A stretch of 64,000 nt of DNA from Octopus vulgaris (taxonomy: Eukaryota), in contig OX597836.1 of the NCBI GenBank assembly GCA_951406725.2, forward strand, positions 16,430,001 through 16,494,000, given 5' to 3'. Of this stretch, positions 865 through 57,575 are shown in pieces; within the stretch, counting starts at the first letter, position 1, and each line of letters starts with the position of its first letter. The translations under genes and the position numbers were made by a program. Under the pieces are notes generated by a model, which was not told the DNA's origin, did no database searches, and worked only from the letters and a program-made list of their open reading frames with translations.

Positions 865-915
865 TATTCCCCCAGCCTGAAAATTTCAGGCCTTGTGCCT
901 ATAATAGAAATGATT
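865..915 (+). mobile_element. Isolated 3' tail (type 3) of SINE family C
   Basis: aaatttcaggccttgtgcctataatagaaatga then (TTA); matches the tails at 23586-23620 and 49851-49890. Confidence 0.6.
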
Positions 916-9703: not shown

Positions 9704-9920
9704 GATGATGATGATGATAATGATGACGACGACGACGACGACGATGACAATGACGATGATGATGATGAAGATGATGATGATGAAGATGATGATGATGATG
9801 ATGATAATGATGATGATGATGATGATGATAATGATGACGACGACGACGACGACGATGACGATGACGATGATGATGATGACGATGATGATGATGACGATGA
9901 TGATGATGATGATGATGATG
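9598..9920. repeat. (AAT)n/(GAC)n/(GAT)n compound microsatellite
   Basis: Read directly. Confidence 0.95.
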
Positions 9921-10479
9921 ATTTCTTTATTAAGGCTTTACATTAGGAAAAACTTGGAGAGTACAGGAAAAACAAAGAACGTGTGTGTTGTGAGGGTTTT
10001 GCGTGTAAACAAGACTAACAAGATTTTTCAAAAATCAGCAATGTGTGAACCTCGATAGGGAGAAGACGTTAGAGGGCTGCTCATGGAAAAAAAACCCATA
10101 AAAAACACCATGGGTACCCTGACTTTTAGGGCAGGTGCCTTCTCTCCTCTTCTTTTTATTTCAACTGCTGGCGTATGCTCAGGGCCAGGCCCGTTCACTC
10201 GCACCATTCTCACCACTTCCATCCACCTTTCTGCAAATTGGTTAGAAGACAATACTTCCCTCTCTACCCTTATTTTTCTTTTCAAGTGAAACTTGAAGAA
10301 GTTCATCGGGGACTGGCCAAAGAGAAAAGTGTTCGTCTTCAGCCCCTTCAATCTCGCCCATCATACAACCTCTTTCGCCATGGCCACCAGGTATTTCCTT
10401 CTCGGTTAAAGGAAGGCGACACGACGATATTCACGATGGATTCAGTTGACAGCCGGATCCGTCCCACGCACGACAGCAT
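9921..10479 (-). mobile_element. Tx1/L1-clade LINE, 5'-truncated 3' end
   Basis: KGLKTNTFLFGQSPMNFFKFHLKRKIRVEREVLSSNQFAERW and the 3' UTR are colinear with the longer copy at 41331-42230. Confidence 0.8.
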
Positions 10480-10731
10480 GCTGGCCTTGTGCCAAAATTT
10501 GAAATCTTTATTGGGTTTAACAGTGACAACGCGTTGTTTCACAGCGCTCTCGTAGTTAGGTTACCATTTCGTGAATTCTTCCAGAACTGAGTAACATTTT
10601 TGTATCGATGCGTTCGTTACAGAAACTGGGCTTCTATTAAATCGTTAAAGATAGCAAAATGCTATATAAAAGGAAGAGGTAAGATCGATACACAGAAGAC
10701 ACGCAAGGAATAATACAATGATGTTGTAGTT

Positions 10732-18590: not shown

Positions 18591-18645
18591 CTGCCCTTAT
18601 ATGACCTTTAAGCCCAGCCAAAGTTTTACACATTTTATTAGATAC

Positions 18646-19064
18646 TTATTTCTTTACTACCCACAAGGGGCTAAACGCAGAGAGAACAAACAAGGACAAA
18701 CAAACGGATTAAGTCGATTAGATCAACCCCAGTGCGTAACTGGTACTTAATTTATCGACCCCGAAAGGATGAAAGGCAAAGTCGACCTCGGCGGAATTTG
18801 AACTCAGAACGTAGCGGCAGACGAAATACCTATTTCTTTATTACCCACAAGGGTCTAAACACAGAGTGGACAAAGAAGGACAGACATAGGTATTAAGTCG
18901 ATTACATCGACCCCAGTGCGTAACTGGTACTTAATTTATCGACCCCGAAAGGATGAAAGGCAAAGTCGACCTCGGCGGAATTTGAACTCAGAACGTAGCG
19001 GCAGACGAAATACCGCTAAGCATTTCGCCCGGCGTGCTAACGTTTCTGCCAGCTCGCCACCTTG
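18646..19064 (-). mobile_element. SINE C dimer (one head plus two units)
   Basis: Perfect 17-bp TSD cacattttattagatac (18629-18645 / 19065-19081). Confidence 0.92.
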
Positions 19065-23586: not shown

Positions 23587-23979
23587 CCTTTCTACTAGAG
23601 GCACAAGGCCTGAAATTTGGGGAGGGGACAGTTGATTGCACCGACCCCAGTACTCAACTGATTCTTAATTTATCGACCCCGAAAGGATGAAAGGCAAAGT
23701 AAACCTCGGTGGAATTTGAACTCGGAACGCAACGAGAGACGAAATACCTATTTCCTTATTACCCACAAGGGGCTAAACACAGAGGGGACAAACAAGGACA
23801 GACATAGGTATTAAGTCGATTACATCGACCCCAGTGCGTAACTGGTACTTAATTTATCGACCCCGAAAGGATGAAAGGCAAAGTCGACCTCGGCGGAATT
23901 TGAACTCAGAACGTAACGGCAGAGGAAATACGGCTACGCAATTCGTCCGACGTGCTAACGTTTCTGCCAGCTCGCCGCC

Positions 23980-38952: not shown

Positions 38953-40101
38953 AAGGCGGCGAGCTGGCAGAATCGTTAGCACGTCGGGCGAAATGCTTAG
39001 CGGTATTTCGGCTGCCGTTACGTTGTGAGTTCAAATTCCGCCGAGGTCGACTTTGCCTTTCATCCTTTCGGGGTCGATAAATAAAGTACCAGTTACGTAC
39101 TGGGTCGATATAATCGACTTGATACCTATGTCTGTCGATGTTTGTCCCCTCTGTGTTTAGCCCCTTGTGGGTAGTAAAGAAATAGATATTTCGCACGTCG
39201 CTACGTTCTGAGTTCAAATTCCGCCGAGGTCGACTTTGCCTTTCATCCTTTCGGGGTCGATAAATTAAGTACCAGTTACGTACTGGATCGATATAATCGA
39301 CTTGATACCTATGTCTGTCCATGTTATCCCCTCTATGTTTAGCCCCTTGTGGGTAATAAAGAAATAGGTATTTCGGCTGCCGTTACGTTGTCAGTTCAAA
39401 TTCCGCCGAGGTCGACTTTACCTTTCATCCTTTCTGGGTCGATAAATTAAGTACCAGTTACGCACTGGGGTCGATGTAATCGACTTAATACCTATGTCTG
39501 TCCATGTTTGTCCCCTCTGTGTTTAGCCCTTGTGGGTAATAAAGAAATAGGTATTTCGGCTGCCGTTACGTTGTCAGTTCAAATTCCGCCGAGGTCGACT
39601 TTACCTTTCATCCTTTCTGGGTCGATAAATTAAGTACCAGTTACGCACTGGGGTCGATGTAATCGACTTGATACCTATGTCTGTCGATGTTTGTCCCCTC
39701 TGTGTTTAGCCCCTTGTGGGTAATAAAGAAATAGATATTTCGCACGTCGCTACGTTCTGAGTTCAAATTCCGCCGAGGTCGACTTTGCCTTTCATCCTTT
39801 CGGAGTCGATAAATTAAGTACCAGTTACGTACTGGGGTCGATATAATCGACTTGATACCTATGTCTGTCCATGTTTGTCCCTTCTGTGTTTAGCCCCTTG
39901 TGGGTAGTAAAGAAATAGATATTTCGCACGTCGCTACGTTCTGAGTTCAAATTCCGCCGAGGTCGACTTTGCCTTTCATCCTTTCGGGGTCGATAAATTA
40001 AGTACCAGTTACGTACTGGGGGTCGATATAATCGACTTGATACCTATGTCTGTCCATGTTATCCCCTCTATGTTTAGCCCCTTGTGGGTAATAAAGAAAT
40101 A
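38953..40101 (+). mobile_element. SINE C hexameric array (one head plus six ~183-bp units)
   Basis: Units start at ~39002, 39185, 39367, 39550, 39734 and 39918; gtatttgtaa duplicated at 38945-38954 / 40103-40112. Confidence 0.93.
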
Positions 40102-40595
40102 GGTATTTGTAATGTTTGCGTGTGATTTAAGGGAGATTTGATTGCTACTTCTAGCATACCGTTCGACCACCAAGAAACGCTCCCTCTGTTATTGACTCCT
40201 CTTGCTAAACGCGCGGCTGCCGACAAAATAAACGGATAAAACAAATAAGCAAAATAAGCGTTATATAATCGACGTTGCTATATCTGTCCAGTAGAGGATG
40301 TTGGAGAGCAGACAGACATGGAGCTGAACAGACGGTGAAGTGGTCAGAACTTGGGTTAGAGTTCTCAACGATGTCAAGGAGGAACGGGAGGAAGGGAAGG
40401 GGGAAGAGAGAGAGAGAGGGGGAGAAAGAGAAGCAGGAGGAAGAGGCAGAAGAAGAACAGCAAGAAGCAGAGGAGGAGGAAGATGTAGAAGTGTGTGATA
40501 CTAATAATAGCCGCAGCACGATCATCGATTCCTAAAACACATTTATTTTTTTTTTTCTCTTCCTATTTCATAATAATGATGATGATGATAATAAT

Positions 40596-41249
40596 GGTTT
40601 CAAATTTTGCCACAAAGGGTAGCAATTTTTGCGGGGAGGGGTGATGAGTCGATTACATCGACCCCCCACAGTTCAACTGGTACTTATTTTATCGACCCCG
40701 AAAGGATGAAAGGCAAAGTCGACCTCGGCGGAATTTGAACTCAGAACGTAGCAGCAGACGAATTACCTATTTTTTTTACTACCCACAAGGGGCTAAACAC
40801 AGAGAGGACAAACAAGGACAGACAAATGGATTAAGTCGATTATATCGACCCCAGTGTGTAACTGGTCCTTAATTTATCGACCCCGAAAGGATGAAAGGCA
40901 AAGTCGACCTCGGCGGAATTTGAACTCAGAACGTAATGGCAGACGAAATACCGCAAAGCATTTCACCCGGCGTGCTAACGATTCTGCCAGCTCGCCGCCT
41001 TTCGACGGGTGTAATACCTATTTCTTTACTACCCACAAGGGGCTAAACACAGAGGGGACAAACAAGGACAGACATAGGTATTAAGTCGATTATATCGACC
41101 CCAGTGCGTAACTGGTACTTAATTTATCGACCCCGAAAGGATGAGAGGCAAAGTCGACATCGGCGGGATTTGAACTCACAACGTAACGGCAGACGAAATA
41201 CCGCTAAGCATTTCGCCCGGCGTGCTAACGATTCTGCTAGCTCGCCGTC

Positions 41250-41251
<2 letters not shown>
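40596..41251 (-). mobile_element. SINE C cluster: tail-1/tail-2 hetero-dimer (40596-41001) and adjacent full monomer (41013-41251)
   Basis: Family C bodies; the monomer 3' end is followed by GGTATT on its sense strand. Confidence 0.88.
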
Positions 41252-41317
<66 letters not shown>

Positions 41318-41330
41318 CATAATAATAATA

Positions 41331-42230
41331 ATTTCTTTACTAACCACAAGGGTTTACATTAAGAAAAATATGGATAGTACAGGACAAAACAAAGAATGTG
41401 TGTGCGTGTATGTATGTGCGTGTGTATTGTGAGGGTTTTGCATGTAAACAAGATCAACGAATTTTTTTTTTAAATCAACATGTGATCCTCAATAAGGAGG
41501 AAACGTTCGATGGCTGATCGAGGAAAAACTCCATAAAAAAACCGTGGGTACCCTGACTTTTGAGGTAGGTGCCTTTTTTCCTTTTCTTTTTTATTATTAT
41601 TTTTTTCAACTACAGGCGTATGCTCCAGGGCCAGGCCCGTTCCCTCGTACCATTCTCGCCACTTTCATCCACCTTTCAGCAAATTGGTGAGAAGACAACA
41701 CTTCCCTCTCAACTCTTATTTTCCTTTTCAAATGAAAATCGAAGAAATTCATCAAGGATTGGCCAAGGAGAAAAGTGTTTGTCTTCAGCCCCTTCAATCT
41801 CGTCCACCATACAATCTCTTTTGCCATGACCACCGAGTATATAAACACAGCCTTTCCTTCACAGTTAAAGGAAGGCGACGGTGCGAACTTCACGATGGAT
41901 TCAGTTGACAGCCGGATCCGTCCCACGCACGACAGCACAGATGTTCGACATAAACCCATAGGTCAGCAATGCTCGGGCACAGGACGAGTGCATGCAGGAC
42001 TGTCTCGTCATCTTGCGCGCATCTCGGACATACTTGGCTGACGGCACTTTCGTAACCGTAAAGTTTATCTCGATCGGGCAAAGCTCCTCGGTAGCACTGC
42101 CAAGCCAGAGATTTTTGGAAATTATCCATCGGTCCCGGGCCGAAAGTTATTCGGAAAAGAGCGGCTAGTTGATCTTCCGACGCCCACGGTCTCCCCAAGA
42201 ACGTCGTCGCACTTTTCTTCCACTAATCCT
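41331..42230 (-). mobile_element. Tx1/L1-clade LINE 3' end (C-terminal zinc finger plus 3' UTR)
   Basis: LAWQCYRGALPDRDKL...VCPRCAQDDETVLHALVLCPSIADLW is an L1/Tx1-type C-x2-C...ET..H....C finger; ~275-bp 3' UTR then (TAT)n. Confidence 0.85.
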
Positions 42231-42309
42231 CTATCACAAGCTAAATTGGACGTTCCACCTATCGTACTGTCTTATTGGCTGAGGGCTGTGAGTGCTTGAA
42301 GACATTATG

Positions 42310-42363
<54 letters not shown>

Positions 42364-44340: not shown

Positions 44341-44548
44341 ATTTCAAATTTTTGTACAAGGCCAGCAAGTTCGGTGGAGGGAGTAAGTCGATTACATCGA
44401 CTCCCAGTGCGTAACTGGTACTTAATTTATTTATCGACCCTAAAAGGATGAAAGGCAAAGTTGACCTCGACGGAATTTGAACTCAGAACGTAGCGGCGGC
44501 AGACGAAATATCGCTAAGCATTTCGCCTGGTGGGCAAACGATTCTGCC

Positions 44549-45789: not shown

Positions 45790-45860
45790 ATTTCTTTATT
45801 AACCACAAGGGTTTTACATTAAGAAAAACATGGACTGTACAGGACAAAACAAAGAATGCG
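45790..45860 (-). mobile_element. Extreme 3' end of the Tx1-like LINE
   Basis: Matches 41331-41400. Confidence 0.8.
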
Positions 45861-46220
45861 TGTGTGTATGTGTGTGAGTGTGTGTAATGCAATTTTATAT
45901 TCTCATGAAAGCTACTTTACCAATAAGTTTCACACCAGAAATTGAGATAAGCCGAGCACTATTCAGAAAGGAAAAGCTGAAAGGAAGAGGTTCGCCATTG
46001 TCATTGGAATGGTGTGTGTGCCCGTGTGTTGTATGTGTGTGTGTACGTGTGTGTGTGTTTGTATGTGTGCGTGCGTTTGTGTATGTACGTGTGTGTGTGT
46101 GTGTGTGTGTGCGTGTTAGTGTGTGTGAGTATGTGTGTGTTTGGAAACCGTTTATTATAGTTATAGATAACGTTATCAAACTAGTCATTGTTTTCATAAC
46201 TTGTGGGTCTCAAAACGATA

Positions 46221-50519: not shown

Positions 50520-51126
50520 GAGGCGGTGAGCTGGCAGAATCGTTAGCAGCTCGGGCAAAATGCTTACCGGTATTTTCTCTGCCGCTACGTTTCTGAGTTC
50601 AAATTTCGCCGAGGTCAACTTTGCCTTTCATCCTTTCGGGGTCGATTAAATAAGTACCAGTTACGCACTGGGGTCGATATAATCGACTTAATCCGTTTGT
50701 CTGTCCTTGTTTGTCCCCTCTCTGTGTTTAGCCCGTTGTGGGTAGTAAAGAAATAGGTATTTTCTCTGCCGCTACGTTTCTGAGTTCAAATTTCGCCGAG
50801 GTCGACTTTGCCTTTCATCCTTTCGGGGTCGATTAAATAAGTACCAGTTACGCACTGGGGTCGATATAATCGACTTAATCCGTTTGTCTGTCCTTGTTTG
50901 TCCCCTCTCTGTGTTTAGCCCCTTGTGGGTAGTAAAGAAATAGGTATTTTCTCTGCCGCTACGTTCTGAGTTCAAATTTCGCCGAGGTCGACTTTGCCTT
51001 TCATCCTTTCGGAGTCGCTTAAATAAGTACCAGTTACGCACTGGGGTCGATATAATCGACTTAATCCGTTTGTCTGTCCTTGTTTGTCCCCTCTCTGTTT
51101 AGCCCCTTGTGGGTAGTAAAGAAATA
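50520..51126 (+). mobile_element. SINE C trimer (one head plus three units)
   Basis: 17-bp TSD ggtatttatttgt(c/g)aga (50505-50521 / 51127-51143). Confidence 0.93.
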
Positions 51127-56915: not shown

Positions 56916-57575
56916 TAAGATAGCGAACTGGCAGAATCGTTAGCACGCTGGTCAAAGTGCTTTGCGGTATTTCGTCTGCCGTTATGTTCTGAGTTCAAAT
57001 TCCGCCAAGGTCGACTTTGCCTTTCATCCTTTTGGGGTCGATAAATTAAGTACCAGTAACGCACTGGGGTCGATGTAATCGACTTAATCCGTTTGTCTGT
57101 CCTTGTTTGTCCTCTCTGTGTTTAGCCCCTTGTGGGTAGTAAAGAAATAGGTATTTCGTCTGCCGTTACGTTCTGAGTTCAAATTCCGCCAAGGTCGACT
57201 TTGCCTTTCATCCTTTCGGGGTCGATAAATTAAGTACCAGTAACGCACTGGGGTCGATGTAATCGACTTAATCCGTTTGTCTGTCCTTGTTTGTCCTCTC
57301 TGTGTTTAGCCCTTTGTGGGTAGTAAAGAAATAGGTATTTCGTCTGCCGTTACGTTCTGAGTTCAAATTCCGCCGAGGTCGACTTTGCCTTTCATCCTTT
57401 CGCGGTCGATAAATTAAGGACCAGTAACGCACTGGGGTCGATGTAATCGACTTAATCCGTTTGTCTGTCCTTGCTTGTCCCCTCTATGTTTAGCCCCTTG
57501 TGAGTAGTAAAGAAATAGAAATAGGTATTTCGTCCGTCTTTACATTCCGAGTTCGAATTCCGCCGAGATTGACTT
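56916..57575 (+). mobile_element. SINE C trimer inside an older SINE C copy
   Basis: Diverged head, three homogeneous units, then old-type remainder ggtatttcgtccgtctttacattccgagttcgaattcc. Confidence 0.9.

Follow-up and report, generated by a model that had tools for sequence, protein, structure and literature searches.

A covarying 3' hairpin at the poly(A)-less ends of Tx1-like LINEs, ORF1-only derivatives and SINEs of Octopus vulgaris as a probable template-choice signal

Mammalian L1, the human element included, picks its template by poly(A). In the L2 elements ZfL2-1, ZfL2-2 and UnaL2, it has been shown experimentally that ORF2 binds a 3' stem-loop, with the stem read generally and the family-specific loop read specifically, and swapped stems still work (PMC4176376). 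Closer to the elements considered here are pairs in which an L1-clade LINE and tRNA-type SINEs share a 3' end, namely ZmSINE2 and ZmSINE3 with LINE1-1_ZM in maize/sorghum and SINEX-3_CR with L1-1_CR in Chlamydomonas (PMC3472496, PMC3747384). Their tails are described as having a compensating variable stem, a conserved loop and a conserved 3' flank, with function inferred (PMC3472496); these plant and algal tails carry poly(A) or poly(T), and values of -11 to -18 kcal/mol are given for them. The suggestion that L1 was stringent first and later relaxed to poly(A) is an open proposal resting on three plant and algal SINEs (PMC3472496).

Among animals, crocodilian SINEU elements were probably mobilised by Tx1-clade elements (Tx1-Mar), with which they share a target preference; they have poly(A), and no LINE sharing their 3' terminus is described as detected (PMC4494074). 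Non-autonomous LINE derivatives in which ORF1 is present are represented by HAL1 (half-L1), HeT-A and Ag-Sponge (PMC5786205). Mollusc SINE papers, as far as consulted, name CR1/CR1-Zenon, L2 and Nimb partners, and no animal L1/Tx1 tail pair was found in the literature searched. The 3' ends described below resemble the plant and algal pairs in their shared, compensated tail, but belong to an animal host, lack poly(A), carry a hairpin of only 3-6 bp and extend to ORF1-only elements. Like the L2 elements they end in a 3' stem-loop, whereas here several families share one loop and the system is known from sequence. Unlike in SINEU, the tail is shared with LINEs and poly(A)-less, and, unlike HAL1, HeT-A and Ag-Sponge, the ORF1-only derivatives keep a structured Tx1-type end with compensated stems of their own. 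Set against these systems, the terminal hairpin would be a further form of the stringent tail that LINEs share with SINEs, and no report of it was found for this lineage.

The window analysed is a stretch of 64,000 nucleotides of the Octopus vulgaris genome (contig OX597836.1, positions 16,430,001 to 16,494,000). It holds 25 matches to CTTGT-N10-GAAA, against 0.65 expected from 100 shuffles. The original prediction had described four stem types around this loop, and all four are found where it placed them. AACC-CTTGT-GGTT forms the terminal hairpin of a LINE designated family A (41342..41354, minus strand) and recurs at 45801-45813 within a short family-A 3' end (45791..45885, minus). The GCCC/GGGT stem, which accounts for most of the 25 matches, is SINE tail 1 (representative copy at 41021..41043, minus). 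Tail 2 (TGGC/GCCA, spacer AAATTT) lies at 10482..10504 (plus), while tail 3 (AGGC/GCCT) occurs at 888..910 (plus), preceded by a short (ATT) run, and on a SINE body at 23589..23611 (minus). The copies at 10482 and 888 had been read as SINE tails, but both are orphan 3' ends with no SINE body in the window. As for the older copies said to have decayed stems, the one at 44342..44364 (minus) is indeed a tail 2 with a mutated 3' arm; that at 40598..40621 (minus) is decayed as well, but represents a fifth type, TGCC/GGCA (tail 2b), and not tail 2. Tail-1 SINE units of 184 bp form tandem arrays at 18642-19014, 39019-40108 (plus), 50735-51124 and 57129-57515, and in all of them the unit junctions map to a single point of the SINE head. 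A LINE 3' fragment of another type, which we take to be CR1-like, occupies 327-860 and ends in (AACT)n without the terminal hairpin or any Pfam match.

The window copy of family A (41330..42306, minus) is a 5'-truncated, decayed LINE of L1/Tx1 type comprising the ORF2 C-terminus with a CCHC finger, the 3' UTR and the terminal signal. Its homology to ORF2 (42304-41633) is frameshifted and covers the C-terminus only. The hairpin is followed by the hexamer AGTAAA and GAAA (41332..41341, minus), the hexamer being AATAAA in most copies. An (ATT)n run adjoins the 3' end (41251..41331) and is probably the target site, because a matching run borders the element on its 5' side (42310-42363). Among 29 other genomic copies, hairpin, AATAAA and GAAA stand at the end in 22, a fraction that is biased because these are the best matches to a query that included the element end; of the others, two lack the 5' arm, two are partial and three stop short of the end. 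The terminal motif marks the LINE terminus at 41332, and the alternative that a SINE fragment is attached to the LINE end there is ruled out by the genomic copies, 22 of 29 of which share the terminus. Related elements end 1-2 nt past the position of the family-A terminal GAAA. A third window copy (9920..10482, minus) has lost 6 nt from loop and 3' arm together, and is one of three copies without part of the hairpin, together with L027 and L030. At 9920-10504 this truncated minus-strand copy meets the 27-nt tail-2 end on the plus strand head-to-head, and no target duplication is apparent; possibly two RNAs were primed at a single site, or the insertion struck the end of an older SINE.

Intact relatives exist, with an ORF1 bearing a zinc knuckle and an ORF2 of 1128 aa. 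In the relative L081, the ORF2 matches PF03372, PF00078 and PF13966 (APE endonuclease, reverse transcriptase, zf-RVT) and has human L1 ORF2p as its best PDB match (E 4e-66), while ORF1 matches PF00098 (E 3.7e-5). An ORF1 with a zinc knuckle is a feature of the L1 superfamily and Tx1 clade. One protein related to that of the LINE shares 55% identity with a protein of Argonauta, and a metagenome scan returned no relatives with DNA context outside this genome. The name Tx1-like is a likely label, since there was no named Tx1 reference among the homologues; it rests on architecture, target preference and an annotation table that gives L1-Tx1 as the recently active group of L1 type in O. vulgaris (PMC13282606).

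A search of the genome with PF13966 gave 150 scored places, and 70 loci were read, 68 of them distinct. An AATAA-type hexamer followed by GAWW or AAAA terminates 65 of the 68, and the remaining three gave no end. Over the C-terminus of ORF2, identity between family representatives is 41-77%; a tree of this region (30 rows, about 160 columns, some frameshifted) shows family groupings only and no order of events. Loop, spacer and GAAA had been called invariant, which is true of one subgroup only. Elsewhere among the Tx1 families the loop is CTAGT, CCTGT, TCAT, TTAT, ATAT, GCAT or TTCAT, GATT or GAAT replaces GAAA, and spacers measure 7 or 9 nt. Among the stems are AACC/GGTT, GCCC/GGGT, GCTC/GGGC, TACCT/AGGTA, AAGATT/AATCTT and AAAATC/GATTTT. 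The fixed target apparently differs between families (L091; L083/L084/L102/L103; L086/L087/L089), being either (CT)n or a constant unique flank, and young copies at L053, L051 and L057 are directly followed by the apparent 5' end of another element.

Poly(A) is virtually absent after these ends, being seen at 0 of 15 family-A, 0 of 17 family-B, 1 of 47 tail-1, 0 of 43 tail-2, 0 of 48 tail-3 and 0 of 8 ORF1-only ends. The 3' poly(A) tail of relaxed, mammalian-type L1 is thus missing from all 15 and all 17 ends of the two LINE families. Clear target duplications of 16-20 bp, starting 1-2 nt past the terminal tetramer, were found at 5 of 20 long loci, the other 15 having no match or short or repeat-borne matches. 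For tails 2 and 3, 60 loci were reduced to 46 by dropping 14 tandem or duplicate rows, and at three of the 46 a clear duplication lies in unique sequence and begins 1-3 nt past GAAA. Since the duplications begin just past the terminal tetramer, the elements end 11-12 nt past the stem. Beyond that point, 13 of 15 family-A ends adjoin (ATY)n. The sequence after SINE tails 2 and 3 is AATAT or ATTATT, which is also what follows family A and its older relatives; ATTATT with two variable letters ahead of it is found at 18 of 43 tail-2 and 25 of 48 tail-3 ends.

The position of the hairpin was assessed on 40 ends (37 LINE, 3 ORF1-only) chosen to cover the variants, the rows of which are not independent. 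In 36 of them a hairpin of 3-6 bp with a score of at least 4.5 lies no more than 2 nt from the hexamer, against 12.75% of 5,600 upstream positions, and four fall under the threshold. Both the structure and its place are therefore general across families. Distant families have stems of unrelated sequence, and loops are mostly 4-5 nt long and nearly all end in the letters RT.

Covariation was measured on 17 pentaloop ends, which are related and hand-chosen. Pairing is realised in 95.6% of cells, and three of the four pairs change on both sides. The covariation score is 0.739, against 0.234 in shuffled data (reached by 0 of 500 shuffles) and at most 0.21 in slid registers. Three of five covariation measures beat all shuffles and two fail (186/500 and 203/500), and RNAalifold returns the same four pairs unprompted. 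The absence of significant covariation, which would have spoken against a conserved structure, is thus not what was observed. In a near-identical background the stem runs from GCCC/GGGT (SINE tail 1) through GGCC/GGCT (L255) to GGGC/GCCT (the ORF1-only element L193), L255 being a one-swap intermediate. Tail 1 and L193 differ by 6 substitutions in 56 columns, four of which make up two reciprocal stem swaps. In the tail-2 context, the compensated stem TGCC/GGCA has 431 copies and the single mismatches 47 and 80, a contrast that represents one evolutionary event; the parent stem has 9,874 copies, counted with a shorter pattern.

Taken with the missing poly(A), these counts and stem changes bear out the prediction of a covarying 3' hairpin common to Tx1-like LINEs and SINEs. 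The structure is a weak one: folding energies are about -1 to -4 kcal/mol, and the minimum free energy fold of the last 28 nt takes another form in several ends. A lower stem, pairing an upstream TCT with AGA of the tail, was inspected by eye and showed no consistent covariation. Further compensated stems were sought by requiring both inner 3' positions to be non-G, which gave 213 sites. The 30 that were read are mostly unpaired decay products, a single one being paired at all four positions, and through this search two more stems came to light, GGCC/GGCT and GGCC/GGCC (324 sites).

Such swaps could also arise without selection on RNA structure, if shared descent combined with template-switch mutation during DNA replication kept a short inverted repeat perfect. 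Template switching is able to produce compensatory stem changes in a single step (PMC8794818), the stem is no longer than 4 bp, and the ends are all homologous to one another. We nevertheless regard this explanation as very unlikely, given that distant families carry hairpins of unrelated sequence at the same spot, where about 13% of upstream positions would be the background, and that inserted copies decay to unpaired forms and are not repaired. Moreover, it accounts for how swaps arise and not for why only paired masters amplify.

The SINE tails are very numerous. Exact sites genome-wide number 9,874 for tail 2, a figure inflated by tandem arrays, and 13,611 for tail 3, with 444 sites having the tail-2 stem and a spacer one nt longer. 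Among the tandem arrays, that at G000:C1:8504854-8511541 and others consist of a 115-bp satellite from the 3' half of the tail-2 SINE. The SINE itself gave no Rfam match and no ARAGORN tRNA match; from its A/B boxes we take its head to be tRNA-type. As to a place in one of the SINE superfamilies with a published central-domain consensus (Meta, Nin/Deu, CORE), the SINE motifs of the window had no match in the supplements of PMC4824008 and PMC4758252, as far as these were covered.

The SINE had been proposed to have swapped tails among Tx1 relatives, and this is borne out for tail 1, which came from a Tx1-type 3' UTR, and less well supported for tails 2 and 3, which are homologous to each other upstream. 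Tail 1 matches Tx1-derived ends over about 55 nt, tails 2 and 3 over only about 15-23 nt. Its stem, loop and hexamer are identical to those of the ORF2-bearing families L053 and L088, and family A of the window is not its closest source. The regions upstream of tails 2 and 3 are 0.68 identical to each other, compared with 0.53-0.58 to other classes. Tail 1 would be a recent replacement, taken from a Tx1-type 3' UTR. Tails 2, 2b and 3 likely go back as sister forms to a single older tail, which belonged to a Tx1 lineage targeting (ATT)n. The best reading of the order is that the old tail diverged inside the SINE and was replaced by tail 1 afterwards.

Tx1 families with 3' ends matching tails 2 and 3 had been expected. 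No LINE end was found among 60 tail-2 and tail-3 sites (the first 30 for either tail), and ORF2 lies upstream of none of 34 sites genome-wide that combine a GGC/GCC stem with AATAAA or AGTAAA. Autonomous LINEs with the tail-2 or tail-3 stem were thus absent from these 60 and 34 sites, which were collected with exact patterns that would miss old or differently spaced ends. These counts bear on family-specific stringency, whereby each SINE tail would derive from one particular Tx1 family of identical stem and be mobilised by that family. The stem of tail 1 equals that of L053 and L088, as this explanation would have it. Older ORF2-bearing relatives of family A, which target (ATT)n, have GCC/GGC-type stems (GGCC/GGCC type, followed by two variable letters and ATTATT) and agree with tails 2 and 3 in their terminal dinucleotides, and the sampling of Tx1 families is partial. 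With no ORF2-bearing element at the 60 and 34 sites, and with tails 2 and 3 homologous upstream, it is nonetheless the least probable of the explanations considered.

The 34 sites revealed elements of another kind. At 13 of them, homology to Tx1 ORF1 lies within 1.5 kb upstream, and ORF1 is followed directly by the 3' UTR, without ORF2, as in HAL1-like elements. These carry the AGGC/GCCT stem of tail 3 and also GGGC/GCCT. There are several such ORF1-only derivatives (L181-L208, L245-L273), one group of which has constant downstream sequence, and at L200 the element is stacked head-to-tail.

We consider it probable, if well short of certain, that the hairpin at the poly(A)-less Tx1-like 3' end is the signal by which the reverse transcriptase chooses its template, with synthesis starting 11-12 nt downstream. 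By analogy with L2, the ORF2 protein would likely bind the predicted hairpin and prime at a fixed distance from it. It would read the shape of the stem and a loop ending in the letters RT. The sequence of the stem is probably not read, since elements with the GGC/GCC stem were amplified and no autonomous element with that stem was found, and recognition of shape and loop would then extend across the clade instead of being confined to single families.

AAUAAA is the canonical polyadenylation signal, and nearly every LINE or ORF1-only end has an AATAA-type hexamer immediately after the hairpin. The hairpin might serve RNA 3'-end formation or stability, whether it presents AAUAAA or is bound by a host factor, with the reverse transcriptase starting at the RNA end so produced. 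This is unlikely, although less so than template switching, as inserted copies are without poly(A), and tails 2 and 3, with at least 9,874 and at least 13,611 exact sites, have no AATAAA and keep the hairpin, the 6-nt spacing and GAAA. The hairpin is therefore probably more than an aid to polyadenylation; acting by itself, it may still bind a host factor. A U7 signal of the histone kind was considered as well and discarded, since inserted copies retain the sequence downstream of the hairpin. If the hairpin is the template-choice signal, Pol II-type elements would retain AATAAA to serve the 3' processing of their own transcripts, and the hexamer could drift freely in older SINE tails, where spacing and GAAA are preserved.

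A broader interpretation, which we advance tentatively and hold at slightly under even chances, is that this is an animal lineage of the L1 superfamily fully independent of poly(A). Its reverse transcriptase would take a minimal 4-bp hairpin, whose loop ends in the letters RT, as a ruler placed 11-12 nt before the end of the RNA; it would tolerate any stem sequence and serve LINEs, ORF1-only derivatives and several SINE tails alike. If true, the stringent state that has been proposed as ancestral for L1 would survive in a present-day animal. An L1-type family that belongs to an animal, has intact ORFs, lacks poly(A) and offers a natural series of compensated tails would allow a direct test of the stringent-origin proposal, and the RNA-binding surface of an L1-type ORF2 could be mapped against the solved human structures. 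For the octopus itself, a Tx1-like reverse transcriptase would be the likely driver of a very abundant SINE family in the O. vulgaris genome.
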